Shown here: positions 1-33,129 of the stretch, piece after piece | Numbering within the stretch: the first letter of the stretch is position 1 | How the letters are laid out: each line of letters starts with the position of its first letter | NCBI GenBank assembly: GCA_900128565.1 | Contig: LT635947.1 | Coordinates: 1-35,009, forward strand | Length of the DNA: 35,009 nt | Origin: Stramenopiles sp. TOSAG23-6 | Lineage: Eukaryota | Direction of reading: 5' to 3' | The notes under the pieces: generated by a model | Databases searched by the model: none | What the model was told of the DNA's origin: nothing | The model's input: the letters and a program-made list of their open reading frames with translations, nothing else | Position numbers and translations under genes: made by a program

Positions 1-55
1 TAAATTCACAGAGAAAATATCAATTTTAGAAATGCAATAAATAATTTTCTGAAAG

Positions 56-1145: not shown

Positions 1146-1175
1146 CCGGGTCCGGGTCCGAGGTCCGAGTCCGGG
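1146..1175. repeat. Short GC-rich (GTCCGR)-type tandem repeat in the divergent intergenic region
   Basis: ccgggtccgggtccgaggtccgagtccggg lies in otherwise AT-rich DNA between two divergently transcribed genes. Confidence 0.6.
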
Positions 1176-1382
1176 TTTATAAAATTTTATTTTTCTTGTT
1201 TTCAAACTTGCGCTCCTGTCCAACAAAACACACCACACTACCACATCACACACTAAATTTTGTTTGTAGAGTTTCTCCTTTCACACAATTTACGTCAAAT
1301 CAAAGATGTCATTCAACTGACATTGCAAACATGCAGATTCAGTTATACTAATTGGTAAAAAGCACATTTAAAAAAAGTGATT

Positions 1383-2949
1383 ATGGTCGTGCCATCATCA
1401 ACCTTAAAAAGATGTAGGTATCAACTCTACTTTAAGTTATCAATAATGGTGTGCGTAGCACTTGGTCTGAGTAATACCCCAGTTGAATCACATAGTGAAA
1501 ATTGCATAGAGACAGAAACATGCAGTACGCACATTCCTTTAAATTTGTTTATTCGGGAACCTTATGCTGAAGACCAAATTGCTGGTCCAGAAGTAGATAT
1601 ACACATTGATGTTCCTTCTAATTTTACAGTTGGCCCTATTGATGGCTTTATTTGTGTCCAACTAGATAAACAAAAAGAAATATGCGCTGAAAATCTTCCA
1701 TCAAACTCCTCAACTCTGAAAGCAAAATTGACTGATGTATCTGTTGGTCGGCACACTATATCAGCGTGGATATCAAAGGGTGCGTCAAACATAAAAATTA
1801 GTCAACATACAGTATCATTTGACACATTAGCTGTGACGAAGCCTTGGTGGGGTCCGTACAGATATAGAACAGAAAATACAACAAAAAGCACGGAACCTCA
1901 AAGCAGAATAAAACACAACATTGAACCTGAAATGACTTGCTCACGTGATGCAGTACACGCTGCGGCAGATCTTGAACAAATTCCGCATTTTCTTGGCCCT
2001 TCACCATCTCGAAAAGTTGCAGAATCTAAAAAAGCGCTTGTCGCATTGTTTGCTGGAAAGAACAATTTTCGTAAAGCTGACGAAAAAATCCGACAATTTG
2101 GTCTAGAAGCCTTCAGTTTTATATTGTTTCTATATGATTTTGCTGAATTAGATATCAAAACATTCCCTTGGCTATCAAAGATCCCAGTGGTTTTGGTTTC
2201 CGGACAAATGAAATGGTTTTATCTAAAACGATTTTTATCTCCAAAAATAGTTTGTCATTACAAGTATATCATAATTGTCGATGACGACTGTGATATGACA
2301 GAACTTGATTTGAAAGGGTTTGTAGATGATATGATGAAATACCAAATTCACATTGGACAACCATCTCACTCGCAAAACTCACATCAACCAATGTATGCTT
2401 TCATGATGAATTTCATTTTTTTTTTCATACCAAATTCCGTACCTAACAATTTTTTTATGTGACATATTTTTTCACCAATATGTACCCATTTCTAATTCAA
2501 AATCCTCAATTGTTGAAAGAAAATGTGGCTGGTATATGGGTAAACTTCATCGAATCTGGGCCACTTCTTGCCTTTTCTACTGAAGCATGTATGTTTTATT
2601 TTTGTTCAAATTCGATTTTTTTTCATACGAAATTTTGTACTTAACAATTTTTTTTGAAATATTTTTCCAAAACACATGGGAATGTTTTTGGCCATTGATG
2701 CAACCTGATTTAGTTTCTGGTTATGGTTATGATTTAATTTGGGTTCCTGCGTGTGCAAAACGTCGAGCGGCTGTAATGCAACAACATTCTATTGTTCATG
2801 TCAATACAGGTAGTGCTTCAAGTGTAAGAGCTAATTGGGTTCCCCGGGCTATCGGTGAAGCCTTTACACTATTTAAAAGGCTTGCCCCTTTCAGTATTTA
2901 TCCAATTGATCCAAAACCATTAGGTAAATTCTACAGTATTTCTAAATAA
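1383..2949 (+). CDS. DUF707-family (putative glycosyltransferase-like) protein; exons 1383-2392, 2482-2588, 2678-2949; ~462 aa
   Basis: KWFYLKRFLSPKIVCHYKYIIIVDDD, IGQP and the spliced NFIESGPLLAFSTEA|WECFWPLMQPDLVSGYGYD match recalled DUF707 motifs (KWWFAKRFLHPDIV..Y.YIF.WDED; FVE.MAPVFSR.AWRC.W..IQNDLVHGWGLD). Three ORF-track ORFs join in frame after two introns are removed. The start could instead be ATG 1446. Confidence 0.8.
2393..2481 (+). other. Non-canonical GT-AT intron 1 (89 nt), family member
   Basis: GTATGCTTT...CCGTACCTAAC...TTCACCAATAT. Removal gives ...HQPM-YPFL in frame. An ATGTA direct repeat makes the exact register slidable. Confidence 0.8.
2589..2677 (+). other. Non-canonical GT-AT intron 2 (89 nt), family member
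   Basis: GTATGTTTT...TTGTACTTAAC...TTCCAAAACACAT. Contains no AG. Removal restores the DUF707 motif EA-W-EC. Confidence 0.88.
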
Positions 2950-2958
2950 ATAATATGC

Positions 2959-3028
2959 TGACATCAAAGAAACTTTTATTAGAAATTGAATGACATCAAA
3001 GAAACTTTAACTTTTATTAGAAATTGAA
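2959..3028. repeat. Tandem duplication (32 nt + 38 nt copies) overlapping the stop codon of the minus-strand orphan gene
   Basis: tgacatcaaagaaacttttattagaaattgaa at 2959-2990 is repeated at 2991-3028 with a 6-nt insertion. Confidence 0.85.
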
Positions 3029-4540
3029 TACCTGTTAAGTTCTCCTCGTATATCATTCACAAGATGAAGAGGTAGGTTATATCTACTTGGTGAAGATGAA
3101 TTCATGTATTGAAGTTCTTTTGTAATCTGATTGAACATTGTAATTGGAGTATTATACCGTTTCGCATCAATAGATAATATTTTTCTAACATATTTGCTAT
3201 GAGTAGGATTCTCGGAAACCCTTGCGTTGTAATTATCTATACTTTTTTTGTATTTTTGTTTTTCAAATAAATTATTTGTTGAATAATTTTCTACAATAAA
3301 TTGATCTGCTATATATTTATTAAGTTCTCCTCGTATATCATTCACAAGATGAAGAGGTAGGTTATATCTACTTGGTGAAGATGAATTCATGAATTGAAGT
3401 TCTTTTGTAATCTGACGAAACATTGAAATTGGTGGGATACTGCCTTTAAACTCTAATCCCCTTTTTTTAGACTTTTCTACCAAATCAGAGGATACAGTAG
3501 ATTGATCTGTACTTGCGTAATTTGTTTTGGTCTCTATATATTGTGATAATTCATCGTCCGATTCATATATATTGTGAAAAATATTTGAAATTTGAAATTC
3601 GTTAGGTACAGAATTTGGTACAAAAAGAAAATTGAAATTATGATGAAAATGTACATTCATTATTAGATGATGAATGATAACTTGGTGGTCCATCATCATC
3701 ACTATCAATACTATAGTTTTCATCTAAATGGTGGACCATTTCTGGAGTTGTTTGAATAATTTTATCTTGTGTGGTCTCTCTACTATTCTCCTCTTCTTTT
3801 TTATATTTTGCCCGTTCAAGCTCACTATTTATTTTATCAATTCGATTTTCTATTTCCTCGCGAAGTCTTTTGTTATAAAATACAAGACACTTTTTATCAT
3901 CCTGGTATTTTATTCTAGCTTCTTTTTTAATAGACTCGCATACTGAACTGCCAAGCTCTTGTTCTGCTAAAGTTTGCCAATTTGATATCGCTGACTCAAA
4001 AATTTCAGTCATATTGGCTAGCTCAGTCGCATAAGAAGTATTTCTGTTTTTTATTGCTGTTTTGAGACTGGATAAAAGATGCCTGTGTTTGCTCATTGAT
4101 TTGCATAGTTCTTTATATGATAGTGTGTTAATTCTATTATTTGCTTCTAAATTGTCAACGCATTGAACGAGTCTGAGCAAACGTTCAGATATGAAAGGAC
4201 CAAGAGAGCTTTCATTTCGAAGCCAAGTCTTCAAATTTGTGCCAGATGCGAATGGTTCAATTCTATAACGAATTCTTTTTTGGTCGTAAAACTCGCTAGA
4301 ATGAATATCGCCTGGCTCAATTGCATGTAGTAATGCATTGATCTCGCTTTGGTCATTTATAAATTCCTGCTCAAACTTTGACCTTGCCGTCATTTTTGAA
4401 ACATTTTGAAAAAAACGTATATTCTCACATGAAAAATTTTTTGACGCTCCAAATAATTCCTGAGTAGCTTCACGACCCTTTCGATATACTGAAAGTGCTT
4501 TTGCTATGGTTTCGTTGCATTTGCTTTGAGTGGGAAACAT
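3007..4540 (-). CDS. Hypothetical protein, ~481 aa; exons 4540-3655 and 3566-3007; helical N-terminal half and a duplicated 40-aa C-terminal motif
   Basis: Two long ORFs (300 and 238 aa) join in frame (SNNE-Y-ESDD) once a family intron is removed. No homology recognised. Confidence 0.7.
3028..3432 (-). repeat. Two near-identical ~115-120 nt coding repeats 285 nt apart (about 3028-3147 and 3313-3432)
   Basis: Both encode PI(S/T)MF(R/N)QITKELQ(F/Y)MNSSSPSRYNLPLHLVNDIRGELN(K/R)Y with nearly identical DNA. Confidence 0.9.
3567..3654 (-). other. Non-canonical GT-AT intron 3 (88 nt), family member
   Basis: Minus strand GTACATTTTCATC...CTGTACCTAAC...TTCACAATATAT. An alternative in-frame AT end lies 6 nt further on. 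Confidence 0.75.
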
Positions 4541-4801
4541 ATTGAGGAAACTCGTTTAGGTTTCGTACTAACTGAAGCAAGCAACTTTTGAAATCACTGG
4601 ATCAACAAGTTTTGTTATATGAGTGACATGGCGACCTACCTGTGCCATCGCCATCGGCATCGATCGGAGTTTTTCATCAGCCGAAACCCACTTGAGAACC
4701 CCCTAACTACTAACCCCACCATCAACTTAGAGAGTATCAGGTAATAAAGTCAATAAAGTGTATTTGTTCCCAACGCCCCTCCAATCTTTATAATATTAGA
4801 T

Positions 4802-5574
4802 ATGGCATGGCGATGTTCAGGAGTGAGTAATGGGGAGTTGATCAAGAATTTAGTCGGAGCTTCCATAATACATACTGATCGAGTAATTCAAACAATGCTT
4901 GTCACTGACCGTCGTTTCTTTACTTCTTCCGATAGACCATACGACGACTCCCCACAAGAAATAGGATTTAACGCTACTATATCTGCTCCTCATATGCATG
5001 GATATGCTTTAGAATGGTTAGTGTCACATTTGAAGCCTGGAATGAAGTCGTTAGATGTTGGGTGTGGCTCTGGATACCTCACAGCTTGTATGGGCCAACT
5101 TTGTGGAAATTGTTATGGAATAGACCATATAAATCAATTAGTAGAATTAGCACGCTCAAATATATCTTCTTATAATCGTGATTTTTTAGACTCCGGCAAA
5201 GTAACCCTTCAGCAGACTGATGGTTTTAATGGTCTACCAGAAGAGGCTCCATTTGATGCAATTCACGTCGGAGCTGCTGCGCCTTCAATTCCTGTTGCTC
5301 TCGTCGATCAGTTGAAGTGTGGAGGTTTGTACGAAAAATTAGAAGAATTCGACCCTGACAGTTCTATTTTTTTGCACTACATTATGTACCTAACGAAATG
5401 TAAACTTGAAATAATTCTTCACAGCACATAATGATCATACCCGTTGGTCCAGTTAATGGTCATCAAGAAATATTAGCTGTGTCTAAGGACAAAGACGGTC
5501 ACGTGAGTACAAAATCTCTTATGGGGGTTAGGTTTATTCCTTTAACTAGTGTAGAAACGCAGATTAAAGGATAA
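4802..5574 (+). CDS. PCMT1: Protein-L-isoaspartate(D-aspartate) O-methyltransferase; exons 4802-5328 and 5430-5574; 223 aa
   Basis: MAWRCSG..N.EL, ATISAPHMH, LDVGCGSGYLTAC, APFDAIHVGAAA, then after splicing QLKCGG-L-MIIPVGP...LMGVRFIPLT. These are the characteristic PIMT motifs. Confidence 0.95.
5329..5429 (+). other. Non-canonical GT-AT intron 4 (101 nt), divergent family member
   Basis: GTACGAAAA...ATGTACCTAAC...TTCACAGCACAT. Removal in this phase restores GGLMIIPVG. The CAG at 5422-5424 gives a frameshift with either nearby GT (5325 or 5329). Confidence 0.88.
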
Positions 5575-5637
5575 TAAAATCTATAATGGGGGTTAGGTGT
5601 ATTCCTTTAACTAGTGTAGAAATTAGTAAAGGATTAT
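5511..5637 (+). repeat. Tandem duplication of the last ~65 nt of the PCMT coding sequence (5511-5575 and 5576-5637)
   Basis: aaaatct.t.atgggggttagg.ttattcctttaactagtgtagaaa-like sequence appears twice in succession. The second copy lies after the stop codon. Confidence 0.9.
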
Positions 5638-5734
5638 AAAATATTTTTTATTTTTCTTTCAAGTTTTTACTTCAGAATTTTACTTTATTTTTTTTTGTTT
5701 TTTTTACCAAATTTTGTAATTATAATAAAAACAA

Positions 5735-8700
5735 TTAAAAAAACATATGATCTTGTAAGCCTGTAGTGTCTGGTTCACTCGATGAATAATATTCTTCTTT
5801 TGCTTTTTCATCCATTCCACTCCAGACAGTCTTATCAACTTTTTCTTTCGTATCTTCTGTTATTTTTTCTAATTTTAAATCATTTACAACATTATCATCT
5901 AATATTTCGTCGGGGGGTGGTCCAGCGTCAATTGACTTCTTTGTCTCTTCTATAATACCTTTATCCTTTGCATTTGACTCGGAAGTATCAAGGTTTGATC
6001 CGCGATTTTTTCTTTGTCTCGATCTCCTACGACGAGATTTTGATTTGGTACTGTCCCCTGCATTATTAGTAGAAGAGCGAGACTTTCTGCGCCTAAATTT
6101 TCTACCAGATCTTGAGGAAATCCCAGACTTGCGGCGAGAAATACTACCTCCGGCTTGATCAGTTGATTTTGATGCATTTTCTAGATTGGTACTACCCTCA
6201 GCCTTATTGCTAGAAGAACGATGTTTTCTGCGTCGAGAGCGCCGAGACTTGCGACTAGAAATATCACCCCCTGCTTGATCAGTTGGTTTTGATATATCTT
6301 CCCCTGCCTTGTTACTAGAAGAACGAGACTTTCTGCGCCTATATTTGCGCCTTCTATCTCCTTTGCCAGAGCTAGAGGATCTTTTGGACCTTTTTTTGGT
6401 TGTGTCGTTCACTCGAGGATCGTCTACTACAGGGACAACTTTCCTTAAAGCTTTGCGTTTTGCCAGTGTTTCTTTACGTTTTATGGCACCTGCTGATATC
6501 TCAGCCATTGCTGCTTCGCTTACGGTGCTAGCTTTACTTATCATCTTACTAAAACGATTACGTTTTTTTCCTGCATCCTCCTCCTTTTTCTTCTTTGTCT
6601 TTGATTGAAGCATTTCTTGTGCCCGAATCAAAACAACTCTAATCCAAGGTAACCTTTTTGATAAAACGAGTCCGCACCAAATCAACAGGAAGCAATTTCC
6701 ACCAATGAGAAATAAACCTAATTGCGTCTGTTCATTTTTTCTTCTGAATGCATTTGCACTTATCAAGAGATTTGAGTAAAAACTACAGAATATTGCAAAA
6801 AGGAGAATAAGCTGAAGATGAAAGTCTACTAAGTGTCTAAATGGGTCTACTAGAGCACACAGAACAAAGAACATCACAGATATGACAACTGCAACAGCAT
6901 TACGTGTAATCCCACCTGGAAGGGCGGCAAGCATACCAGTCAACATTGCCTTTCGAATTAACTCCACAAATTCATACCACCACACTTCATGTCTATAACT
7001 AATGAATATTGATCCATACGTTTTTGTAATTCGGTAGTGAAGGATTCTCAAATCTTTGTTGTACAGAAGTACTTCGTGCATTTCATTTCCCATGGCTTCT
7101 TCTGCTATAAGCCACACTCGATTGGGCCATAAAATACAAAATCCTATCACTGGCACTCCAATAACATACACAATAATAGCGCTGATTGCCACGATTGACA
7201 ATATTCTATATTGACTATCGTCACAACTGACAGCAAGATCCGCAACAAGGTAATTACTTCCATTTACCTCAAAACAATTAAATACACGAAAACATCTCAC
7301 AGAAAAGGATGGATATATGCAAAACATCACTAATATAAGAAGTCTCTTTGCATTCATTGTTGCGCTTGCTTTTGTGAATTTTACTGTATTTCCAGATAAG
7401 TTCTTTAGACCGTGCGCTGTTTTGAGCGCCAGTAGAATAACGAAAAATATCAGTGGCATTACCATCATGTATGCATAAAATTTTGTCGCAAAATCGGATG
7501 AAAAATCACATGGACTTACATATGCTGCAAACCGCATTATATCAAAATTGATTACATGGAAGGATTCAATAAAAGCAGTATAGTTTTCTGGGTATTCTTC
7601 ACCAGAAGCATATTGCATTTGGGATAAAACTTGGGTATAACTCAAAACTAATTTTACCGTTGCGCCCAATTCTGCCCAATATTGCCCTAATAATCCATGC
7701 TTGTCGTCCACACTGTGTAATCGTTTTCTCTTTAAAATTTCTTCCTTGGTCAAAACAGATTTTTTCTGTTCCTCGTGCAATGCTCTAATGAGTGTTAGTC
7801 GATCTTTACGCGAACCCATACTTTTCCGTGCTAATGTATGTCGTAGTCGTGATTCCTTTGCTAATTGTGCTGCTTTGCGCTTCATTCTCATTTCTTCTAG
7901 TTTTGCTTGGTAACTTTCAGTGTGCATAGTTTGTGATGTCCATATAATATTTGGAGTTTCAATATCATTTGTATTGATTCCTTTAGTCATTGAACTAATA
8001 CTTTTTATAGAAACAGAGCGCAATGCAGCTTTTCTAATTTTGTTACGAGTTGCTTCCAACTTTTCAAGGTAACCATCAGCATAGTAACCTTTGTCCGCTT
8101 TCGAAACCATCACACAAATTGATACAAAATAGGAAAAGAAACCAAGCAAAATACAGAGAATAATCATACCTTTTGTATTGCCTGTACTCTCTTGGTTTTC
8201 GTTTTGGCATTTTGTACAATGTTTACCATCAGACTGCAGTGCCCAACCTTGCATACATAATGCACAAAGAATTCCCATATGCCCTTCACGACAATTCTGC
8301 CAGTTAGATGTCGAATTTGCCCTAATAGGCCCGGCTTCACAGTTGTCGGGTGTTAAACATTCACGTAGAGTACAATCGCGATATGCTTTCTGGGATAATG
8401 GATCAGATGCACATTTACAAGAAGAACACGGGTCGTCATTGCAATCATCTGTAATTTCTTTTGGGCAAAACCAGTCTGGATGTTGTACTAACAATTCTGG
8501 GTCTTGCCAGTAACCAACAACTCGTTCATTCACAGAATTCGTTTCACTGCAGCTACCATTAATATAAGGATTTCCATTACATGGTACAATGTGGATACGT
8601 CGATTTACTGCATTAGTTTGTAAAGCTAGACCAAATTTGTCACAACGCGCACCCGGTGGACAAGGTTGGCATTTTTGAGCCCATGTATCCTTTCCAACAA

Positions 8701-11700
8701 GCGCTTCAATAGGTAATGTTAATGCGGTTACGGTATTATTTGATTCTCGACAATTGTATTTTTCCTGGTCTATGCGAAGGCCGTGTGTAGCGCCATCAGG
8801 TCTATTACCATTACAATCATCCGCATATTCAAAGTATTTTGCGTTGAAATATTCATCAGTATACAAAGCTTGAAACTTAGTTGTCGATGGACATTCATAA
8901 GCGCTCGCTTTTGACCCACCAGGGTCGTTTTTCTGGGCAAGAGCAGCAGCTGTACAATCTTTACTCCAAGAACCTTGCCAATACTCTATACTGCCTCCAA
9001 GATGAGCGTAGTACGATGCAGGACATTCGCATCGGCTCCGGTCACCTCCAATTTGTTCCCCAGTCACAAGCTTGACTGAGTTCCAAACGGGGCACTCTAA
9101 AGCTTGGAATTGACCAGCAGCACAAAATTCAATACCTTTGCATTTTACTTTACTAGCAGATGTCATACAATAATAGCCAGCAGGACAGATACTTGGATTA
9201 CGCCAGCCAGCGGTACTATCTTCGAAGTCTGTACGCTTGCCACAGTAAGCACCTGGCTCAGTACATTCCATAACAGTTTTTGAATTCGGACAATAAGAAC
9301 CTTCTGGGCACAAAACCGGTTTTCCTGTCCCTGGAATACAACGATATGCTTCTCCGTGATATGTCTCGCCAGTTGCAATAATTCTGTTTGATGGAGACCG
9401 CATATGCGGAGACCAAGTACCCACTATTTTGTTTGTTTTCACAACTACTTTTGAATTATTTTCATCATCATTATTTGCATCATCATTACTTGCATCATCA
9501 CTACCTGCATCATCACTACCCGCATCATCATTTGACTCTATGCCATTTTCGCACTGACTCTGTGTTGTCCGGGCTTGATACCAAATACCAGCGTGCTTAT
9601 ATTTTCCAATAGGTAAATCTGCCTCGGTCCAAAGTAGAAGCTCGCAATCAATAACATTACGCGGAGAAGATATCCCTCGAACATTCCAAATACCTGAAAT
9701 ACTGCAATCTTTTATCTCGCGACCATGAATTTCACGCATTGCAGAATCATAGCATTTCTCATTTTTCCAAGTACCACCAATGGAACAAGTCGTTTCATCT
9801 CGACTACGATGGATGAATGTATAATTTCCGTGTCGCTCATCCTCCACGGCACAAAAACTTTCTCGAGTTAAAATAGTCATATGATCATTTGCATCAACAC
9901 ATACATCGATACCAACATGAATTGCCGGGCCAATATTTGAGCCAATCATACATCCATGAAAAGGAAAGTCACATGAGTACTTAAACTTGCCCTGTTCACA
10001 ATAGAAACCTTCTGGGCATAATACGGGCATTGAAGTACCTTCAGGGCAATACCAAGATGGAGGCTGAATCGGATGATCCTCTAAAACAAGATTTTTATCT
10101 TTGACTTGGTCTGCTGACGCATTTGGATCTAATACACAAGGTTTTTTGAACTCACCTTCTTCACAATAAAATCCCGCAGGGCATACTTCTGTTTTCGCCG
10201 CATTTTCACAAAAGTATCCTGCTGGACACTTTATAGGTGTAATCGTCTTTTCTGGACAAAACCAAGACACGGTTTCATTTTCAAGTTTAGTTTTTGTTTT
10301 TTTATTTGCCTCTTCATTATATATACAACTTTCTTTTACGTTTGAAGATTCACAAAAAAAACCCGCTGGACATTTCACTTGTTCAAACGAACCTGCGGGG
10401 CAATAAAATCCATTGTTTTCGCAACTTCTCACTTCCCTTGAGTTCTTACATCTGTTCCCAGCCTTGCACACATGTATTTTGGAAAAATATTTCAAAAAAA
10501 ATCTAAAAAAAATGTTAGGTACAAAATTTCGTATGAAAAAAAATCAAAATTGAAAAAAAAATAAAACATACATCTGGTGCACCTGAACCGGTCGGACAAT
10601 ATCTAGCAAATGCATCGACAGACCATATTCCGATTTCTCCATCTGGTGAAGACTCGCAACTCTCCGGAGTGGGTCTATCAATTGTCAAATCGACACCTTC
10701 TACAAGACATCTTCCAAGTTTGGGTTGAAGATTTTCAGATAGGAAAATATTCCTTTTTCTTTCACCAATCATAATATACTCTGCATCTTCAATCTCAAGA
10801 CATGCTCGTCTATCAACGTCTGAAGATAATATAGTACCATCAGACTGTTGACAGACTCCATAAAAATGATTGTCGTAGGGAAAGTCACAAGAGTATTTAT
10901 ACTTTCCTTCTTTACAGTAATATCCCTCAGGACATCTATTTACTCTCATTTTTTCTTTCGTCCTGTATTGCCCATGATGCCATGCACATTCATAATCCCC
11001 CCTGAATTTAGGATTCCATTTTGCACCAATTTCTTTACACAAAGCTTTGTCTGTAACATCACGAATTACACCTTGGCGGTTTATACATGTGCCAGTGTCT
11101 TTAACGTGCCAATTGCCACCAGCAGATGTACAGGAATATTGATCTGTTTTCTCTTTCATTAATGATTGTGCATCCGATGCCACACAGACATCTATATTTG
11201 CGATATCTTCGCCATCAATGATACAATATTCGAATTCTTCATATAATGAAATATCACCTGTAGCAGGAGGACAAAACCATGCAATAGCATTTGAATTTTC
11301 AAGTAAATTACTGTCCATCTGACCCGTAACTGGATCCACTTTAAAAACACAACTTTTCGGAAATGCCCCATCAACACAATAAAATCCACTTGGACAAAGC
11401 ACTTTTGAGTGTGCGCCAGGGCATACATGTGACTCTGGACAAGTTTTAGGAAATACTGTGCCTTCAGGGCAGTAATACTGCTTATCTTCTGCGATGTTTT
11501 CTTGATCTACTTGAGAATCCCAAATACATATTTTTTTTTCCGATGCATTTGAACAATAATACCCAGCAGGGCATATTTTAGGACTATATGAACCTTCTTC
11601 GCAGTAATTAGCATGTCCATCACCCCCACAGGATCTCAGTACACTAGATTTCGGACAGTAAGAGCCCTTTGGGCATATTTTGGGTACCAACGATCCTTCT

Positions 11701-20700: not shown

Positions 20701-23700
20701 CCATTTGGAAGAGTATTGCCTTCGCCAGAAAACACATACGACTTTTCCACTAAACCAAACTGCCCAATGAAACTGCTTCCTCCTTGTCCACCACGTTGTG
20801 CAGTGAAGCTATCTGGGTCTCCATTTACTTCGCCCGATATACCATAGTCACCACCGATCATACCACCGCCACCACCGCCACAATTCGTTCCTCCAGATCC
20901 ACCTCCCCCAAAACCACCACTTCGAAAAACTTTATCATCTTTCATAGCCCCTCTGCCTCCATTTATAAAGGACATTGGACAATTATCTGTTGCTGGATTA
21001 TCGGAAAATGCTGCGTTACATTCTGTTTTATTTCCCGTGCCATTTTCAATAAACCCCCCACCACCAGAGCCTCCACAGTCTCCTTCGTAACTTTGATTTA
21101 AATTTTCCACAAAGACTTCAAGATCTGTATTCGAACTGTCTACACTTCCCCCAAATAATTCCTCGCCAACTATGAGTGAGGTAATATCTGCTACATATAT
21201 TAAGCCTTCGGCTGTTTCAACAGGTTTCGATTGATCAAAAATGAGAGACTCTCCTGAAACGATTTTTAATACACCAACTGGGACATATGATTTAATTTCA
21301 TAACGAAAGACATATACCACATCACCAGCAGTAAATATTAGATCGGCTGATGTACCGGTGACCACCACTTCATTATCAGGGGATAGCGTGATATTTACAG
21401 AGTCAATCAACTCGTCACTACCATCTGTATACTTTACATGATATTTTACACTTCCCGAATTTTCAATAACATTGATTATTTTTGCATTTTGTTTCCGCAC
21501 CTGTATTGGAGAATAATAAACATATTTGACAACAACTCCTGTAGGTTTTATTGGTATTGCTATTGGTTCTCTGACACATTTACCACCCTCAATTACCTTG
21601 ATATCTTGAATAACCTGGTGGTCCACTTCTTCTGATATATCAAATGTATTGCCGTCTCTTGTACATTCGCCGCGATAGCCAATACGACATGTAGAAGTTC
21701 CAATGTTGGCGCCAAGAACACAACCACGATAGCAATCTTCTATAGTGTTTATTGTGCAATCAGTCTTATCTTGATAGAAAGATGTACAAAAGGCATCTTC
21801 ATTTGGTACTGTAGTATCCGGATTCAATAAAGCATTATTACAAAATTCTTTGCAGACAGTTTCATTTGTATAGATCTTCGGGTATTCCCTTTCAAGGTTC
21901 TCTCGGTATTCGCAAGCCTCGGAACACGAAACAAAGCCGGATATAGCACTATTACGTAAACAACAATGACCTTCACTTTCACATCGGCGAGGGCATTCGA
22001 CATGAGGATGTGTAGATGCTAAATCTGTTTGAAAGTCACATCCATACTTCACAGTAACAAATGCCTTTGGTGCTGTTTCACACATACAACCCCCGTTTGG
22101 ACACATAAATACAACCAAACCATTAATATAACCTTTTCCACCGTTTCCGTTTTTTAAGTCCACCTTGGTGACTGTTTTATACAAATATCTTTCTGCGCCA
22201 CCATTGGCAGCATTACTAATTGGTGCGCGACCATTTCCACCTTCAAACCCATTGTTAACATCACTGGGATCAGCATGACTGCCACCGGCCCCTCCAGCTA
22301 TCATGATAATATTTTCAATGGAAGGTAACATTTTTCTCTTACATGAAAAATAACAGAAACCATTCCAATCACCATGGGCATCCATGCGTTCAATATAGAT
22401 GGTAGAATTTTCTACTTTTTTAATCGTAAATTCTACATCGTTGTCAAATTCTACAGTTCCCGTTTCTGTATCAATAATCCGTTCACATTTCATATGATAT
22501 CCTTTGCTGGAGATAGTCGAAGGGCATTTTACATACTGCTCATTATCCAGAGGAATTTCATTAGACGTTGTTTCTGCGACATATTCTATACGATATTTAT
22601 GAGGAATGTGCGGACTATGACGCATAACAAACGTTCCACCAGACCCACCCGCTCCATATCCCTTACCATCATTACCACCAATACTACCACTTTGACCGAC
22701 TAGAATTTCAATCTTTTCGCCCTTTGTAAGATTAAAATTAGCACGGATAATAGCCCCTTTTCCTTTTTTCCTTGCCGCTTTATTATTTGTATTTTCACGC
22801 CAGGCGTCACTTGCACCTGCAGCTTCTATCGTATACGTTGCAGTTGCCGGGGCTGTCCATATTTGTATACCACCTTCAACATTGAAGAAGTCATTTTTTC
22901 TTATCCAATGATCATCATCATAGCTAGGGTTGTATGAATTTTTACATCTGTCGCTGTCCGGGCCTTCGCTTCCTTCTTTACCACAATTATCAAATCTCAT
23001 TGTTCCTCCAAAGTCATATAAATGATGACTTGCAATATCTTTACTGAAAAATCCCGGGGAACACAAAAGGCATTCATCAATATTCGCGTTTTCTCTTCCA
23101 TGCCCTCCATGACACCTACAATAGTATCCAGGTCCAGTGAATGTTTCTTCACATGTATATTTATGTCTACATTTGTTTTTTTCTGATTCCTGAAACTGCA
23201 CCAAATCAGGTGATACGCTGCTCTCATCTGAATTAAAAAAATACTGATATATGCTGTAATCAGGCGTGCTAGGATCTACATCATCGTACGCGATGTCCAT
23301 TGAACCATCACTATTTATCTTTGTAACGCTACCTTTGTGCCACTTGTTTCTCACAGCACAACAATCGACTAAATCATCAAAAAGGGTATTGTCTGATGGA
23401 AGCTCTATTCTTTCGGCCAGGGCTTTTTTCAGAATATCGTCACAATCAGAATTACTAATACAATTGTCAAGTTTAACTTCACAATATTTTCTAATCTCCG
23501 CTATATCATCAGCAAGATTTTTCTCTGTTGGGGCTAAAAAAAAACCCTTCTTTACCTCTACCTCTGCATCCTTTGTTATAGTTTCTTTAAACCATTTTTC
23601 AGAAGGGTTGTCATCGCCATCTTCGTCTGGGTTACAACCTCGCCATTCATCTTTGTTGCATGGATTATTAGCACATTTATTTTCTTTTACACATGGTATT

Positions 23701-26700
23701 GCTTTACCTTGTTGATCGATACCACCTCCAATATAACCTGCTAAACAGGAGCAATGAGATTTATTTTTCGCTAGAGTATACCCGTCGCTTGTTTGAGAAC
23801 ACACGCCGCCAATTCCACACGGTTCATCGGCACATTCATTCACATCAACACATATTTTCTGTACATATCTGAATCTCGTATCAAGTTTAGTGATACAAGC
23901 ATCTGATGAAGTATAAGCACAATCTTCCTTGAGTTCAAAACCAGGTTGACAATCTCTACATTGAAGAAGTGTAGCGCTACTATCACACGTATTGTGAAAA
24001 ATATTTAAAAAAAAAATCGTTAAGATACAATATTTCGATCGGAAAATAAATAAATCTGAAATTCATGATGAAAACGTACACGTCCCCGCGGAATTACATG
24101 CTTCGCCCCCCGAAGCGTCGCATTTACTCATAGTGCCACATACACATCCATCACCCCCGTCCTCACTTAAAGAACAATACTCAGAACCCCAGTATCCAAG
24201 TTTCATGTCTGTCCGAAATTCACACATATCCTTTTTTCTACACTCAGTTTCAGGGCCTGTTTTGTTTGACCAAAACCCAGTAACCGAGTCCACAAATCCA
24301 TAGTTTGCAATACACTCGGCACAAGAGTATTCAGATACAGCTGTCCTGTCGCCATTGAGATTTTTACATGAGTCTATTTCGGATTCCACTGCTTTGCATC
24401 CTTCTAATTGTCTATATGTGTCATGTTCCAGGGGGTCTAATAACTCTTGAATGTCAAGACATGAGGTTCCGACAAAACCATTCAAACAAGTTTTACAATT
24501 TGTAACCGGGTCAAAACCCTTATCACATCTACACTTTGCGTGTACATTGCGCTTGCGATAAATACTAAATCCATCCTCAGGTAATTTGTCAATGAGTTGA
24601 TCACATGTTGTGTTACATGAACAATGAGTTTCACTACTAGAGTAGTTCATATAAAAGAAGTCATCACACAACTCGATACACTCGTTCAATGTTTTTGAAT
24701 TATGATTCTCTTCATTATCAGCAACACACGAATAATCTTCCTTCCAAAATTCAAATGTACTGTCTGATGGCACAGGATTCCCACATGTACCGTGAGAAGA
24801 ACAATCATAATCACTTTCACATAAATCTCCATCTAAGGTTTCACAAAAAACACCAGAATATCCTTTAGGGCACACGCATTGTAACTGTGTTCTTGTATAT
24901 GTATCTGCATTATGATTACTCGACTCTGTAAATGAATCTGGAAGATATCCCTTCTCTCTCAAAGAACAGCGTACTGGCATTTCATAAACGACAAAAGTCG
25001 AAACATCAGCAGCACCTTGATCATTTGATGAGAGCCTAGCGCCACAATATAATGAATCTATAAATGAATTAGTATCAGTAGTCCATTTTCGAGTCGTCCA
25101 GTTGCTTCCATTAGCTGTACATTGTGATTCCTCTGTATACGAGGCATTGTCACACGAATCAACGCACTCTACCTCTGTATTAACATCATTAGGTGTACAA
25201 TATCCATATGTAGTCCAGAATCGAGTTGTCCATATTCCTCCACCCTCTTTACATTCTTTAGAATCTGTATACGAGTCATTGTCACACGAATTAACACAAG
25301 CTACCTCGCTATTTACATCATTAGGTGTACAATAGCCATTTTCTGTAGCTGTATATTTGCATGGTATAAGTTCACCTGTGCATTCATCTATTTTAGGTGT
25401 ATCATCAAGTGGGAATACAACTATAGACTGGTCATCACAACTTTCATCATTGCACCGAAAGCCTACATAGGAATAATTAATTGCTTTCTCTCTTATGATA
25501 CGTTTAAGTGAATACGTGTTCGACACTGTGAAGTAATTACCGCTTTGCTTCATGCAACCTAAATATGTCATAGTTCCGACCCATTTAGAAAGGTTGTCAC
25601 GCTGATTCCATCCTGATTTCTCCATAAAAACAGTATCGCATTTTGACTTTATTGAGTTTGGTTTTGAAATGTCAAGGCACATGCTCATACAATCTGACCT
25701 GCTCATTAAAGACGTATCATACTTTCCTAAATCATCTACTTCATGAAAGCCAGCATGCAACCCACCATCAACAAGTGGAGAACGATATAAATTTGAAACA
25801 TCGGTCTGGATATTGAACTTCAGTGCAGATGACCCAGGAAAACGTTTTGTGTAAGTAGTAAAAGGAGGGTATTTCTTAGAAAGCAATTTTACTTTGTATA
25901 CAGACCATAATCGCGGACGAGAATTCGTTGCATTAGAATTACCCCATTGCTTCTTCGTAACTGACTCCAAGAGAGGTGGCATATCTGTTGGATACTTATT
26001 ACACTGGGTATACGATATATCAGTAGTGATATTTTTTCCAAAAATAACCTTTGAATTTTGGCTAAAGCAGTCGTCGGCGGTTTCACATGAAAATGCAATG
26101 TATTCTATTTTTTTTGTTATAGCGTGTTGAATTGATGATGCAAAAATTCGAGACACATGTGGGGTTATGGTTATGCAGTAGCGCCAGCCGCCTTTGCCAA
26201 CATTATTCACGTTGCCCTCGTTCCATATGGGTACGCCCGCCGTTCCAGCTTTGGTCGAGGAGCAGCCGTGCAACCAAAAATCAGCATGCACCCCTGTCAC
26301 GGCGTTATCGCCATTGCCCACATTGTAACTGAGGGTCGGGAATTCTGCGGCGCACTCAGCCTTGGTCAGTGCACGAGTTCCACTTGGGCACGCCGCCCCT
26401 TTCGTCTCGTGTTCCGTTACTGCCCCTTCCGTCTCTTGTTCCGTTACTGCAACGGCATCAGGGAGTCCGCCAAATGCAGAAGCCGTAGTATAACCATCTT
26501 GCTTTATTACACGTGAACCAAATTTTGGCCAACATTCGCATATTTTATTTGCATTATGAAATGTAAAATAGAAACCAGCTTCCCCCAAATTGACACATTC
26601 CCTTCGACAAGAAGCGGCATCAGCTACTACTGTTTCAACTCTTGTTTCCAAAACAAATGGAATGCTCGGAATATCACTGTCTTCATTGTACACTCGAGTT

Positions 26701-29700
26701 GCTTCTCGACTGTGATTATAAACATAATTATCATTTGGAGGGCGTTGAAGTTCGTAGATCCGAAATAGGTCGTTTGTAGCTTCACTTATAATACACTCGG
26801 AAGTCCAAATACAATTATTTGAACCATCGGTATCATAAAAATATGAAATAAAATTGCATGATAATTCACTCACACATATATCCTTACAATTTTCCAAACT
26901 TGAAGCATTTGTCTGACCATTTGAAATACTATTTGAATCATCATATGCGCATACCCCAACACACGAATTTGGCTTGCAAAGCATTTTCCACTCATTTTGG
27001 ATCAGTGGGGCTTCTTGTATTCCATTAATATGAGACGCATCAACCAGTGGGTAGTATTTTATGTATTCCTTGTTCTCTTCACACGTGGTGTCGTCCCAAT
27101 TTTTGAATAGACATTTACANTGACCATTTTTCATTTTAGATGGTGGCTTACGACCTGGAGTTGTGTCTCTGTTGATTATTACACCATCATCAGTTGACAT
27201 AGAAGATCGAATAAAGCGAATATCACTCATACTAGTTATCGAGAAATAAGTCCATTCCGCTTTTATATAATCATCGCAAAAATTCTTATTATCAGAATTA
27301 TAAGATTCTGTTTCGGATTTCCACAAAAAAATTTCTGCCCCGAACTTAACCTCAATTTTATTTTTCAAATCAGACATGCTCATTCCTTGAAGTATCTTAA
27401 CACCAGTACCTTCATTCCAGTATGATGGTCTGATTTCACCGAGTTCACCGGTGTTTGACGTAGCACACTTCATTTTCCAATAAACAGGTTCCAAATCATT
27501 GACAGTCACGTCACCGCCATCCCAAAACACTTCGAATCCCACAGCCTTTCGCTGATTATCCCAAGATTTAAAATCTGTTGGTGTTCGCCCAAGTATATTA
27601 CTAGTAGTTTGAATTTCACTAGTACATGAATTGTGAAAAAATATTTTACATTTGAAATTCGTTAGGTACAAAATTTTCTATGAAAAAACAAATCGAAATT
27701 CAATTTTGAAAACGTACACGATTTGTGACACCATTCAATAGCAGATGCTTCTTTTTCTACTAAAGGCCCAAATTGATTTCCGTCAGGTAGTATGCTCCCG
27801 CTTCCATCGAAAGTTTTAATGAAATCATTTTCATTTGAACTTGTCGAATCTGCACAAGAACCTAAAATACCAGCTGAGTAAGGCAAAGTTGTTACATCAC
27901 CATGAAGACAACCTTGGAATTTGACACTATTAACCAATTCGACGAATATATTAGTATCTTCATCATTGTTAGCAGAAGACATTTTGAACTTTCCTCCAAC
28001 GTGAACTTCAAAGGAAAAACTACCAACACCATTGCTCCATGCTGGTTGTCCGTCAAACACAGGAACTTCTTGATCTCCGTTTGTTGTAACACAGTTTGTA
28101 CAGGGGGGATTTGTCCAAAACCCCCTTCGTCGCGACCACGATCCCTCACAAGGATCAGGAGATATATGCCAATACCCTGAAGTTTTGTTTACTGGTTCGT
28201 AGTACAAAAATATGTATTGTGCTACATTTTGAAATTCAGGAGTATCGACCCATTGATTATATGTTGATTCAGGAATGCAGTTTCTTGATTTATCGAGATT
28301 ACACGTCCATTTAATTTTATGTTTGTATTGTGAAATACCATTGCAGAGTGGTACATATTCAGTAGAGTAACTCCCATTCAAAAAACCCCAAAGACTGGAA
28401 GTTGTTCCATAAACAAAAAGTTCAGTGTTAAAATCTGTTTCGTCCTCAATACAAGACCCACCGTTTTGACAAGGACTGCTATCACAAATTGAACTGAATG
28501 ATTGACACGACGTAGACGCTATTTCACTGGTATATTTCCCAGGAGAACAATGGAAACAGTCTGTTTGACCTGGATCAGGCTGATACATATGAATAGGACA
28601 ATGATGACAATCTTCTATGCTATTCTTCTTTACATAATCAGCATTTGTTGGAAAATAACGCCCCGAAGGACATTTGATACAAAAATTTTCTTCAAAAAGA
28701 TAGTGCCCAGGATAACACGTCGCACACTGTCTGGGACCACGTCTGTCTTCAATTGACTTGGGTTCACCAAATTCACAATCCGCTGGCCAGTTCCGACATT
28801 CTAATTTACCTTCTTGTTCTATTGTGAAAAACCTACCCTCAGATGGATAAACAGAAAAAAATTCACATTTTCCAGAATCCACCAAATTGCATTTGGCTTC
28901 TTGTGTACGCTCTGATACCCCATTACAACGACCTTCAGATTCATTCGTTGTGGAAAATATTTTAAAGTTTAAATTCGTTAGGTAAAAAACTTGATACAAA
29001 AAAAATGAAATTTAAATTACCGATGAAAATGTACGGTTGTAATGCTTTGAGTAATGGATGAAAGATCAGGGTAATCTTCTGAAGTGTCCACTGCTTTGCG
29101 AAGCCGATTTTTAATTGCATCATCTGGTTGATACATGCAAAAACCCTTCACTAGTTTTTGCATATATTCCCAATCTGAACATTTTGTACAAACACCCTCA
29201 TTTATGTGACCATAGGGACCGGGAGACTGAATCAGAAGATTTCTATTAGAATTTTTTTCACCTTCATCTTCATTGCAAGGCAATAATGACTGACACTTTT
29301 TACCTCGAGTCATATCATTGCCAACCCTTTTATAAGAACCCCTAGGACATGGGACACAATAATTTTGCGTTGCCCCTTTACCGGTTCCATGATTACAAGG
29401 TTTACAAGTTGATAGATCGACGTATTCTTCACCACAAATTTCTTTATAAATATCAAGGCTGTTATAACCATCTTCAGCACAAAATGTACATACATCATTT
29501 TCACGTCTTCCTCCATCAAAGACATCTGTTTTTTCCCCGCAATCAGTATCACATAATTTGCACTCATTTATGCTATTTGTGCGCTTGTCGTTATATTTAC
29601 CATTTGAACATTCTGAACATATAGGTGGGTCTGTACTTCCTTCGACGGAGCATGCATCCCCTGGCCATTCAAATCCTCGGGGACACACCTCATTACAATC

Positions 29701-32700
29701 GATACACGCCGTTGCAGTACTTGAGGTACTGCTATACCGGCCGATAGGGCAGATTTTACATATTGGTGCATTCTTCGTCGGAGAGTCTTGTGGTATGACT
29801 TTATATCCTGGACCACAAACAGCCTCTAGACAGCCTATTGAAGTATCCGTGGCGTCGTTGTACGTATCCTCAGGACATTCAATACAATGAGGTGACTCCT
29901 CCTCCTCCTCCTCCTCCTCCTCCTCCTCCTCCTCAGTTGAGTAATGAAATGTCATTTGATTTGTACCAGGACTTCCATCTTGATTATCCTTACAATGATC
30001 TGTGCTCGGTAAATGTGTACCTGGTGGACACTCACAAGACAAGCAAGATGTGCCAGAGAACTTTTGAGTATTTTGATATTTACCATATGGACAAGTTTTA
30101 CAGGAAGGTATCTTTGTGGGATTGCAAATGCTTTCTCCTACAGTCCAAGATCGAGATGTCCATGTATCCCCATTAGAAGTACATTCTGATTGAACTGTAT
30201 ACGAGGCATTGTCACATGAATCAACGCACTCTACCTCTGTACTTACATCATTAGGCGTACAATGTCCATATGCAGTCCAGAATCGAGTTGTCCATGTATT
30301 CCCATTAGTTTCACATTGCGATTGATCTTCATAGTTGGCATTGTCACACGAATCAACACACTTTGCCTTTGTATTTTTAGTTACTTCATTAGGTGTACAA
30401 TATCCTTCTCTTGTAACAGAACTTTCAACATACTCCCCTTGTGCACACGCACAAGCATAACATTCATTTTTACTAAACAGATCATATTCTATTCGGGCTG
30501 TCTCCAAATACGTACCATGTGGACAATTATGACATACACCCTTTCGATCTTTATGATGTTTTGATGTTTCTGGTAGATATGTCCCCCTTTTGTCACATTC
30601 GTGCCATTTACAATCCTTTCCAGAACTCCATTGTCCATCAGGACATTCATTACATTGCAGTGCTCCCGTGCCATGCTCACATCCACTCGGAGAATAGCCC
30701 GGATTACATTTACACTCTGTGCACTCTAAACCTCTGTGATATTTTCCGCGTATCTTACTATTGCACAGTGGACTATAATTGTTTGCACTGCATCCAAGAC
30801 ATGATACACAACTAGTGTTTAACGAACTTGGAATCTCATTCTCTTTGGAATTTCTAAATACTGGATCATTGTTATATTTTCCATAATCACATTGTAAACA
30901 AACTGGACTTGCATCCGTATGACAACTATGACTAATATTCCCAGCACTATCCGACGTCGTTTCCCAATACTCCCCATCAGGACAACCGCGGGCGGGGAAT
31001 GCAGCAAAAAAATTAATTACAGCTTCTTCACTACACGCTATGCATGGGTCCGTAATAATTTGCGATCTCAGGTAAAATCCAGCTTCACAATCTTTACACA
31101 CAACACAAGAAGCGTCACTCACAGCACCTTTCCTATCGAAATTTGAATTATATTCACCTATGTCGCAAAAAACGGAACATTCTCTACACTCAGTTAATTG
31201 TTTATCACGGTATTCTCGATAATACCCAGCTTCACAGTCTTCACAACTCCAAATATCTTCATAGTATCCCTGTTTAATTCCATATCCTAATTTTGTACGT
31301 TTTTGAATTGCTTTTTTCCCAGCAGGACAATATATACATCCATTAAATACTGTTCCACCCACAAAATATGGGTGTACTTTTCCTTTAACACATGTTTTAC
31401 ACGCTGTATGACCATTGTCGGGATAACTGAAATTTCCGTAAAAACATTGCTTTTGTGTACTTTGTCCCAGATTATCTTGGTAAAACTGAACATCACAATT
31501 TTTGCACTTCGTTTCATTTTCATCATTCTGATACTGTCCTCTGTCACAATTTTTACACTGCGATTTATTTTCCTCATTCTGATACTTTCCACTGGGACAA
31601 TTTTTACACTTGTCTTGTCCTATCTCATTCTGATACTTTCCTGTGGGACAATTTTTACACTTGTCTTGTCCTATCTCATTCTGCCACTGTCCTTTACCAC
31701 AGGATTTACATTCAGTTGCACCTTCAAAATCAGAAAAATACCCCGGAAGACATTTGGTACATTTTTCCTCTTCTTTAGAAAACCATCTTTTTTTAGCTAT
31801 GTGTGTCCAAAGAAATTTTTTCTTTGAGAGATTATTAGCTTGGTCGACCAGAGTACAATCTTCTTCGTACGTTCTATCTGCTAAGGGCTTACATTTTTTA
31901 TAGTTCGATATTTCATAAGTTAAATTGTTTTCATTTCTGTAAAAACCTTTGGCACACTTTACACACAACAACCAACCTTTTTGTGAACAAAATTTTTTGT
32001 ACTCAAGAGGTGTGCCCCATTCTTCAAGATTATAGGATCCGGTAGCAAACACCGGAACGTACCCTGTGTTGGAACATTCTAAAACATTACCGTTGTTTTG
32101 TTTTAATTCATAAGATTCTTTTATTTGATAGTCAGCCAAATCATCTCTAGTCCTTATTATTTGAAAATTGTTGTTGTATTCAGAGTTTGAAAAATATCGA
32201 CTTTCACGTTTATGTTTTTTGGGAAAATATTTTCAAGAAAAATTTCATTAGATACGGAATTTCATACAAAATAAAAAAATTAAAATTCACAATGAAAATG
32301 TACGCCAAAACCAGGAATATAATACCTGTTATTTTTGTTAGTACTATCTTCGTTCCTACAAAACCCTTCATATATCCCATCCCCGTCCGTATGATAGTCC
32401 TTATGCTCGGGTTCCTCTAAAATATCATTTTCAAAACAAGGTTTTTGATTGTCAAAAGTAGGTTCATCAGATTCAGGTCGGCACCAAAGAACATTGAGAA
32501 AGACATTCCTATATGCTTGATGTGATGCCAAAAAAAAATTTAATTTTTTTTTTGTTAGGTACAATATTTCTTTGGAAAACAAATAAAATTGAAATTAAAA
32601 TGATAAAAACGTACATGTCGTGCTGCTTCTTCTGCTTCTGCTTCCTCTCTCGCCAACTCTGCCGTTTCTCTTCGATTCTCGGCTTCAAGAACTTCATCCG

Positions 32701-33129
32701 CTGCCTCATCAGCCTCTCGTAGACCCTCTGCCGCGATCTCTGCTGCGATCTCTGTTTTGACTGCGACCTCATATGCTACTTCTGCTGCTTTTTCAGACGT
32801 TTTTTCGGCAACACGGATGACCTCGTCNNNNNNNNNNNNNNNNNNNNNNNNNNNNNNNNNNNNNCCTTCTCTGCGGCTTCGGACACCGCGTTAACTACAT
32901 CTTTCACATATAGTCTTCTTCCTCGCCTCTTCAAAATTCGCCGCTTTTTGTCTGTTGGAAGTGGCTTTACTTTATTAGAAATGATAAAACTCCTCTTATA
33001 TCTGTCTTTTGTCGGCGAAAGTTTTTCGTCACCGTCGTTCGATTTTGTTTTTTCAATAGTAGAAGCTTTTAGATTCGTACAGGAAAGTAAAAGGGCGATG
33101 ATGCATAGCAAGCGGTGGAAGGATAACAT
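5735..33129 (-). CDS. Giant cysteine-rich multi-pass membrane protein, ~8,900 aa, 7 exons (33129-32615, 32519-32304, 32211-29035, 28942-27718, 27625-24080, 23986-10572, 10471-5735)
   Basis: N-terminal signal peptide, basic RRILKRRGRRL site and Ala/Glu-rich helix. These are followed by many C..C..G.Y (GCC2/GCC3, TNFR-like) and CP.G.YC repeats, EGF/cbEGF, PAN/apple-like, ALK/LTK-like Gly-rich and FN3-like modules. The C-terminus has ~9 hydrophobic segments and an Arg/Ser-rich tail. All six junctions are in frame after family introns are removed. The frame across the N gap in exon 1 cannot be verified. Confidence 0.8.
6000..6400 (-). repeat. Arg/Ser-rich coding repeats in the cytoplasmic tail
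   Basis: RRRK(S/H)RSS(S/T)N(K/N)A occurs three times and SK(P/S)TDQAGG.IS.RKS twice, with matching DNA. Confidence 0.75.
9463..9532 (-). repeat. 15-nt coding minisatellite (DDAGS/DDASN/DDANN)
   Basis: gcatcatcaYta units repeat every 15 nt. Confidence 0.8.
10472..10571 (-). other. Non-canonical GT-AT intron 5 (100 nt), family member
   Basis: GTATGTTTTA...TTGTACCTAAC...TTCCAAAATACAT joins GAPD|VCKAG, restoring a Cys repeat. The internal TAG ending at 10503 is out of frame. Nearly the same sequence as intron 2. Confidence 0.88.
23987..24079 (-). other. Non-canonical intron 6 (93 nt), GT-GT (or GT-AC if slid 2 nt), family member
   Basis: GTACGTTTTCATCATG...TTGTATCTTAAC...TTCACAATACGT, with an ACGTGT direct repeat across both junctions. 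Joins SAGT-C-DSSAT in frame. Confidence 0.8.
25082..25340 (-). repeat. Two tandem ~42-aa modules (GYCTPNDV...CVDSCDNASYT..S.C...G..WTTR.WT), also present twice at about 30140-30410
   Basis: 25141-25200 is almost identical at DNA level to about 30203-30262. Confidence 0.85.
27626..27717 (-). other. Non-canonical GT-AT intron 7 (92 nt), family member
   Basis: GTACGTTTTC...TTGTACCTAACGAATTTCAAA...TTCACAATTCAT joins CHKS-C-TSEI in frame. Confidence 0.82.
28943..29034 (-). other. Non-canonical GT-AT intron 8 (92 nt), family member
   Basis: GTACATTTTCATC...TTTACCTAACGAATTT...TTCCACAACGAAT gives the phase-0 join SITT|ESEG. The 3' end was chosen by analogy with other copies (+/-3 nt possible). Confidence 0.72.
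29896..29934 (-). repeat. (GAG)n microsatellite encoding poly-Glu
   Basis: About 13 CTC units on the plus strand. Confidence 0.95.
31495..31712 (-). repeat. 51-nt (17-aa) tandem coding repeats C(K)NC..G.YQNE..Q.K
   Basis: ggacaatttttacacttgtcttgtcctatctcattctg occurs twice exactly, with 2-3 diverged neighbouring units. Confidence 0.85.
32212..32303 (-). other. Non-canonical GT-AT intron 9 (92 nt), family member
   Basis: GTACATTTTCATT...CCGTATCTAAT...TTCCCAAAAAACAT gives the phase-0 join PGFG|KRESRY. The frame stays open down to the 1040-aa ORF. Confidence 0.78.
32520..32614 (-). other. Non-canonical GT-AT intron 10 (95 nt), family member
   Basis: GTACGTTTTTATC...TTGTACCTAAC...TTGGCATCACAT gives the phase-0 join EAARH|QAYRN. 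ACAT is repeated at both junctions. Confidence 0.78.
32828..32864. other. Assembly gap (37 N) inside exon 1 of the giant gene
   Basis: Run of N. The Ala/Glu-rich frames on either side are out of register, so the gap length is probably misestimated. Confidence 0.95.

Follow-up and report, generated by a model that had tools for sequence, protein, structure and literature searches.

Ten copies of an introner-like intron family with putative non-AG 3' ends in a gene-dense contig of Stramenopiles sp. TOSAG23-6

The contig LT635947.1 of Stramenopiles sp. TOSAG23-6 (GenBank assembly GCA_900128565.1) was analyzed over a window of 35,009 nucleotides (nt), whose composition is eukaryotic, gene-dense and compact, with a GC content of about 0.38. 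Open reading frames, Pfam matches and frame continuity define six genes in the window, and four of these genes contain ten short introns that resemble each other and are the subject of this study. Two of them interrupt a DUF707 gene (1359-2949, plus strand), one lies in an unnamed gene (3007-4555, minus strand), one in a PCMT gene (4757-5571, plus strand) and six in a giant gene for a cysteine-rich protein with Ephrin_rec_like repeats (Pfam PF07699; approximately 5737-32890, minus strand). The giant gene has seven exons, one of which spans 13,415 nt. Removal of its six introns yields a single open frame of 8,863 codons, and the predicted product contains 6.4% cysteine. RNA contigs cover 5631-11000 and beyond. 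No start codon was found in the 92 open codons upstream of its first intron, a stretch that includes a run of N at 32828-32864; a single N is also present in exon 5, at position 27120. The public sequencing runs that share DNA with the window are seawater metagenomes and metatranscriptomes, together with two small DNA runs from 2015 from which the contig may originate.

Intron ends were set by the reading frame and the alignment of the family, and each copy carries a branch-like sequence box. In the DUF707 gene, the first intron is located at 2393..2481 (89 nt, GTATGCTTT...ATAT) with the box GTACCTAAC at 2439-2447; it is in frame solely at the end homologous to that of the other copies and is flanked by the direct repeat atGTA (nhmmer E = 4e-15). 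The second intron of this gene, 2589..2677 (89 nt, GTATGTTTT...ACAT), has the box GTACTTAAC at 2637-2645, 33 nt from the end. The unnamed gene contains an intron at 3567..3654 on the minus strand, with a box at 3601-3609. It is 88 nt long at the homologous end, and a 94-nt version is also in frame, with the direct repeat atgaat, so that both lengths fit. The most diverged copy belongs to the PCMT gene (5329..5429, plus strand, 101 nt, GTACGAAAA...CACAGCACAT, box at 5386-5394, nhmmer E = 7e-15). The remaining six copies are on the minus strand in the giant gene. They comprise 10472..10571 (100 nt, GTATGTTTT...ATACAT, box at 10514-10522, 43 nt from the end); 23987..24079 (93 nt, GTACGTTTT...ACGT, the sole copy ending in GT, box GTATCTTAAC at 24019-24028); 27626..27717 (92 nt, GTACGTTTT...TCAT, box at 27661-27669); 28943..29034 (92 nt, GTACATTTT...GAAT, box TTACCTAAC at 28977-28985); 32212..32303 (92 nt, GTACATTTT...ACAT, box GTATCTAAT at 32247-32255); and 32520..32614 (95 nt, GTACGTTTT...CACAT, box at 32554-32562). 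The copies 28943..29034 and 32212..32303 are not flanked by direct repeats.

The ten introns (88-101 nt) align end to end, the PCMT copy included, and their pairwise identity ranges from 0.53 to 0.93. Mean pairwise identity is highest in the box (0.83), the donor (0.79) and an ATATTTT block (0.77), all above the spacer background of 0.58. It amounts to 0.69 in the terminal 10 nt, to 0.58-0.62 in the spacers and to 0.29-0.30 in the flanking exons, so the similarity runs along the whole intron and stops at the exon borders. A search of the window with the nhmmer profile of the family returned exactly these ten copies, with E-values from 1e-10 to 1e-16, all in sense orientation and inside genes, and nothing more below E = 1. 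Removal from the mRNA is indicated by RNA contigs for one copy, by continuity of the protein profile for the PCMT copy and by the frame of 8,863 codons for the six copies of the giant gene. Judged by their sequences, the ten introns are copies of one introner-like repeat; the family statistics are those of the ten copies in the window.

The element appears to be very abundant in environmental DNA. In the DNA run X3, 5,781 contigs align to 11 kb of the window, and their summed depth, which adds up a community and is not a copy number of one genome, reaches 31,568 over 10472-10571 compared with about 9.6 on either side. The bin with the intron 2589-2677 has a summed depth of 7,324 versus about 6-8 nearby, and the diverged PCMT copy has a depth of 11.5 and no excess in the same run. 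Since the excess is seen at two copies that are 93% identical and not at the PCMT copy, the abundant subfamily is that of this pair. The element is also very deep in poly(A) RNA libraries, in the regions 10277-10643, 2570-2936, 2203-2569 and 3304-3670, for instance 9,307 versus 35 in the run X6. Introns, whether retained or excised, could account for this RNA depth, as could other transcripts or DNA. Further copies were sought in public DNA, where metagenome contigs gave 11 loci and genome contigs 5 loci, all of them chance matches without the family features; viral contigs gave 0 loci.

All ten copies start at the same alignment column (13) with GTA and end at the same column (122). The terminal dinucleotide is AT in nine copies and GT in one, and the last four bases are ACAT in five copies, ATAT in two, and TCAT, GAAT and ACGT in one copy each; the AG that terminates U2-type introns is not seen at any of these ends. 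The intron length modulo 3 that is required to maintain the frame is obtained at column 122 in 10/10 copies, which for arbitrary ends would have a chance of about (1/3)^10. Copies with direct repeats permit other donor registers when taken individually, and no register other than GT...AT (GT...GT once) is open to all ten. The donor is of the usual GT type: GTA is invariant, and the consensus GTAYRT agrees with the familiar GTATGT at 4-6 of the six positions.

Two junctions can be checked against data other than the frame and the alignment. RNA contigs of X5, X6 and X9, three runs from two studies, join position 10469 to position 10570, extend 255 nt into either flank and skip exactly the 100 nt predicted for the intron 10472-10571. 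The joint can slide by 4 positions and may be read as AT-AC, TG-CA, GT-AT, TA-TG or AT-GT, and never as GT-AG. An in-frame AG located 9 nt past the end of this intron is unused in the RNA contigs. In the DNA run X3, element-bearing contigs enter this intron from both sides and no joined contig was found. In the PCMT gene, the Pfam profile reaches position 167 in exon 1 and restarts at position 169 in exon 2, with one split codon between them; this makes the junction exact and gives a 101-nt intron ending in CACAGCACAT. An AG located 5 nt before this end is passed over. In total, the segment between box and intron end contains no AG in 8/10 copies, and both AGs that are present in the other segments are skipped. 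Together with the two junctions, this supports the original prediction that the 3' site of these introns is not found by scanning for AG.

The exact sequence GTACCTAAC occurs in six copies compared with 0.21 expected, a number reached in 0/100 shuffles, and four variants, namely GTACTTAAC (2637, plus strand), GTATCTTAAC (24028, minus strand), TTACCTAAC (28985, minus strand) and GTATCTAAT (32255, minus strand), complete the set, as had been described. The ten boxes occupy a homologous place in one repeat family, and therefore the motif count reflects the number of copies rather than ten separate selections. Each box lies 45-57 nt 3' of a GTAYR donor that breaks a long reading frame. It is a candidate branch site by its sequence, with the branch A putative throughout: CTAAC, TTAAC or CTAAT is found in 10/10 copies and is followed by T-runs, as expected for a YTRAY-type branch site with a pyrimidine tract. 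A palindromic AAATATTT, reported as usual between box and intron end, is present there in 7/10 copies, and the shorter ATATTTT in 8/10. Read as RNA, the potential pairing targets are UACCUAAC in the box and GUAYRU in the donor. Counted in window order, the last base of the intron lies 35, 33, 35, 36, 43, 33, 36, 35, 36 and 35 nt beyond the last A of the box; with ends defined by frame and alignment, we thus recovered the same ten near-fixed values that had been counted by hand.

We consider it fairly probable that these introns are a repeated introner-like family with a non-AG (AT) 3' end that is set by the terminal block of the element and not by a ruler from the branch box. According to this explanation, a short element of about 90-100 nt would have come to occupy unrelated genes of a marine protist whose genome is compact and otherwise poor in introns. 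Its own splice signals would come with each copy, namely a yeast-like donor GTAYRT followed by T's, the box (G)TAYCT(T)AAY, the T-rich ATATTTTT and a terminal ...CAC/CAA..AYAT. The copies would probably be removed by the major spliceosome, with the donor and the branch box serving the first step. The second cut would then fall after the terminal AT (GT once), at a position fixed relative to the last 17-18 nt of the element. The spacing of 33-36 nt between box and end would go back to the ancestral element from which all copies descend, perhaps held in addition by mild selection on 3' segment length. We infer that branching takes place at the box and that splicing of the remaining eight copies follows the pattern of the two checked ones.

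The strongest rival, still an unlikely one, is the ruler suggested by the original prediction: after branching at the CTAAC box, the machinery would cut about 35 nt further on, whatever the sequence. Nine of the ten distances fall within 33-36 nt, and in 8/10 copies there is no AG to scan for. With growing divergence of the copies, differences in length increase for the 5' segment (rho +0.54) and not for the box-to-end distance (rho -0.18; the pairs are not independent), which even in the most diverged two is 36 and 35 nt. This counts in favor of the original prediction. Shared descent predicts similar spacing by itself, however, and the caveat attached to the original prediction, that common ancestry of the copies could explain the spacing, is well taken, as all ten introns form one family. 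The spread of the box-to-end distances (standard deviation, SD, 2.8) is not clearly tighter than that of the donor-to-box distances (SD 3.5). An argument against a ruler comes from the 93%-identical pair 2589-2677 and 10472-10571, which have 33 and 43 nt, respectively, between box and end. The two differ by 11 nt inserted between box and ATATTTT block, and both introns end at the homologous CCAAAAYACAT. The 43-nt outlier is the only RNA-verified copy, and its cut lies at this homologous terminal sequence. The distance from ATATTTT to the intron end is 17-18 nt in 8/8 copies with that block, tighter than the 33-43 nt from box to end, and the distance from the branch A to the block varies from 14 to 24 nt. 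A constant distance on one side of the block and a variable one on the other indicate that the cut follows the terminal block rather than the distance from the box.

A derived minor-spliceosome (U12-like) system, in which odd 3' ends are tolerated and the acceptor is chosen by its distance from the branch site, has a low probability in our view. The consensus of U12-type 5' sites is RTATCCTT, and the donor of the first DUF707 intron, GTATGCTTT, fits the U12 consensus at 8/9 positions. CTTAAC variants of the box exist, and the RNA-verified joint permits an AT-AC register. The resemblance of the donors to U12-type sites, pointed out earlier, is lower in the other nine copies, which agree with the consensus at 3-7 of 9 positions and do not have its CC core. 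An AT-AC register is possible in only 3/10 copies, with the flanks read by eye. U12-type introns are defined by the 5' site and the branch sequence (PMC3584512). GT-AT is listed among the rare non-canonical termini of minor introns (bioRxiv 10.1101/2022.09.24.509304), and non-canonical termini support U12-dependent splicing (PMC3584512). The same source gives an optimum of 11-13 nt between branch site and intron end, compared with 33-43 nt here, and describes U12-type introns as being without a polypyrimidine tract, whereas a T-run is present in the family (PMC3584512).

We regard it as improbable that the family consists of ordinary GT-AG introns that have been misread, with acceptors a few bases into the exon and the 100-nt joint contributed by element-free strains. 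In the range searched, in-frame GT-AG alternatives exist in 8/10 copies. Such a reading is possible for 23987-24079 and 27626-27717, each with the donor shifted by -2 and the acceptor by +7, and another alternative (0, +9) is available at 10472-10571. The latter is rejected by the RNA contigs of three runs, which skip 100 and not 109 nt. Those of the PCMT intron would remove residues from an ungapped match to the Pfam profile, and for 2393-2481 there is no in-frame GT/GC-AG alternative in the range searched. Contigs as such do not separate splicing from an empty allele. Against the misreading as a whole stand the lack of a joined contig in the DNA run X3 and the ten copies that are in frame at one homologous column.

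Structure, the other determinant of the 3' site that had been proposed, received no support from folding. RNAalifold predicted 0 conserved pairs for the alignment of the ten copies, and the single folds have z-scores from -1.88 to +1.07, with 8/10 above -1.2. We also considered pairing between intron positions +3 to +6 and the last four bases. All four positions pair in 3/10 copies, as judged by eye, with no consistent covariation, and this candidate was rejected. Excision by a non-spliceosomal machinery that cuts paired ends in the style of euglenid non-conventional introns, to which the non-AG ends, the short direct repeats at the borders of 7/10 copies and the paired ends of the RNA-verified copy 10472-10571 (the only copy folding in this way, z = -1.88) could be related, is the least probable of the alternatives, given the absence of a consensus structure, the fact that the canonical 5' end and the branch box are the best-conserved blocks, and the variable borders described for euglenids, hemistasiid diplonemids and Amoebophrya (PMC4770533; PMC12621601; PMC7789003), which the family does not have.

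Several observations weigh against an introner-like family with AT ends set by the terminal block. RNA supports one junction out of ten, that of 10472-10571, and contigs do not distinguish splicing at 10469/10570 from transcription of an allele without the element. A poly(A) RNA contig of X5 (5108-5443, 346 nt, depth 8.6) follows the genome without a break and retains the PCMT intron; its source may be unspliced RNA or DNA carryover. No spliced PCMT contig is found among the RNA matches listed. The joints listed for the other four introns in 1-11000 include no bridging spliced RNA contig either, which is not counted for or against the family. The in-frame GT-AG alternatives count on the same side, as does the stability of the box-to-end distance under divergence, and a loose length constraint on the 3' segment, as originally proposed, is possible. 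The 3' segments contain 2 AG dinucleotides where base composition predicts 7.2, a scarcity which hints that AG is still avoided and still matters to the splicing machinery. Searches of a protein collection for spliced products found none: two near-identical database proteins, P0001 and P0002, run unspliced into introns, the latter through 27626-27717, and a further search gave only relatives with 25-31% identity. The DUF707 profile has no weight on either side, since exon 2 is too short to score and the 56 profile positions left unmatched face about 42 residues. A published description of the family could also exist beyond the literature searched.

The hallmarks of transposons are likewise missing from the ten copies, which have no terminal inverted repeats and no clear target-site duplication. 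Direct repeats of 4-6 nt are seen across the borders of the seven copies mentioned above. A clear target-site duplication was rejected as their source: exon end and intron end match at 4.10 of 10 positions within the same copy versus 3.83 across copies (permutation p 0.29). The upstream exon ends in T in 8/10 copies and in AT in 5/10, and the downstream exon begins with G in 6/10; the border repeats are found because the flanks generally resemble the intron ends. The exon junctions have a weak consensus of their own, approximately (A)T/G with the slash marking the junction, which mirrors the ...AT and GT... ends of the introns. The classical proto-splice site AG/G mirrors AG and GT in a similar way.

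The other two genes of the window are an LRR gene (56-1054, minus strand) and a PAC1-like gene (33488-34456, minus strand). At 689-742 in the LRR gene, joints of DNA and RNA contigs step back by 50-54 nt, and the summed depth is 488 versus about 24-37 alongside. The pattern points to a tandem or repeated LRR unit, either variable in copy number or common to other genes. Intergenic space is minimal throughout the window; the ends of convergent genes are approximately 58 nt (2949-3007) and 165 nt (5572-5737) apart. An Rfam search of the window gave no match.

Among the signals of eukaryotic gene expression, the AG that closes introns at the 3' end is one of the most constant. To our knowledge, the known large-scale departures from it (euglenozoans, Amoebophrya and some tunicates) alter both intron ends and leave few other signals. 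If only the 3' dinucleotide deviates, next to a donor and a box of textbook strength, the family would allow site recognition in the second splicing step to be studied in isolation. The natural insertions and deletions of the copies form a mutational series, and one pair of copies already speaks against a ruler from the branch site. The entire intron complement of such a genome would escape gene finders and introner surveys restricted to AG or AC acceptors. It is plausible, though somewhat less likely than not, that the host is an abundant uncultured marine protist with thousands of copies, in which GT...AT introns with canonical donor and branch site form a constitutive class and the AU end is read via the terminal block. 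If so, a genome-wide change would have altered the second catalytic step, with G1-G(-1) giving way, for instance, to a G1-U(-1) contact, and natural variants of the copies would allow a direct test of 3' site choice without AG.

The literature searched yielded no description of a GT...AT introner family or of TACCTAAC as an intron branch motif. Among known systems with unusual introns, those of Mirusvirus are reported as canonical GT-AG (PMC12768974) and have no bearing on the family. The U12-type introns are similar in that GT-AT termini occur and the choice of the 3' site depends on the distance from the branch (PMC3584512; bioRxiv 10.1101/2022.09.24.509304), and differ in the 5' consensus, the spacing and the T-run discussed above. 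Human U2-dependent introns with TG 3' splice sites demonstrate that the major spliceosome can use non-AG acceptors; these sites are rare alternatives beside a normal AG in 36 genes, and not the constitutive end of an intron family (PMC2374985). In Fritillaria and other tunicates, a genome-wide departure from GT/AG is still ascribed to the major spliceosome, as would be the case here. These are animals, however, and both of their intron ends are highly divergent, with no single conserved GT...AT class in the accounts cited (PMC13326754; PMC12621601).

Closer in habitat are the introns of Amoebophrya (PMC7789003) and hemistasiid diplonemids (PMC12621601), which are also repeated non-GT-AG introns of marine protists with short border repeats and a proposed origin from mobile elements. 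They are described as having no conserved terminal dinucleotides, inverted repeats of 8-20 nt or G/C-rich pairing ends, and weak branch motifs (PMC7789003; PMC12621601). The family described here has a canonical donor, a strong box and no pairing of the ends, and only its 3' dinucleotide deviates. Its uniform 5' end and the lack of conserved pairs set it apart from non-conventional introns, which have variable borders and pairing ends.

The introns of intron-poor eukaryotes analyzed by Irimia and Roy in 2008 (PMC2483917) share with the family a strong branch consensus, a narrow distance from the branch to the 3' site and a small number of introns. The 3' structure is similarly constrained here, as seen from the box identity and the narrow range of nine distances; the copies are kin and do not represent independent convergence. 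In contrast to the family, the introns in that study end in AG and do not belong to one repeat family (PMC2483917), and the uniformity seen here is at least partly inherited from one ancestral element.

A further comparison is with introners, transposon-like repeat families that generate introns (PMC9860276; PMC12130899). As in introners, the similarity between introns of unrelated genes extends from one exon border to the other, all copies are in sense orientation, and the host genes are otherwise intron-poor; the copy number may likewise be very high, as the summed depth of a community sample suggests. The family differs in that no terminal inverted repeats, clear target-site duplication or coding partner were seen here, and in its AT end: the families described in the survey were curated on GT/GC/GA/AT donors and AG/AC acceptors (PMC12130899), and a family ending in AT would therefore be filtered out.

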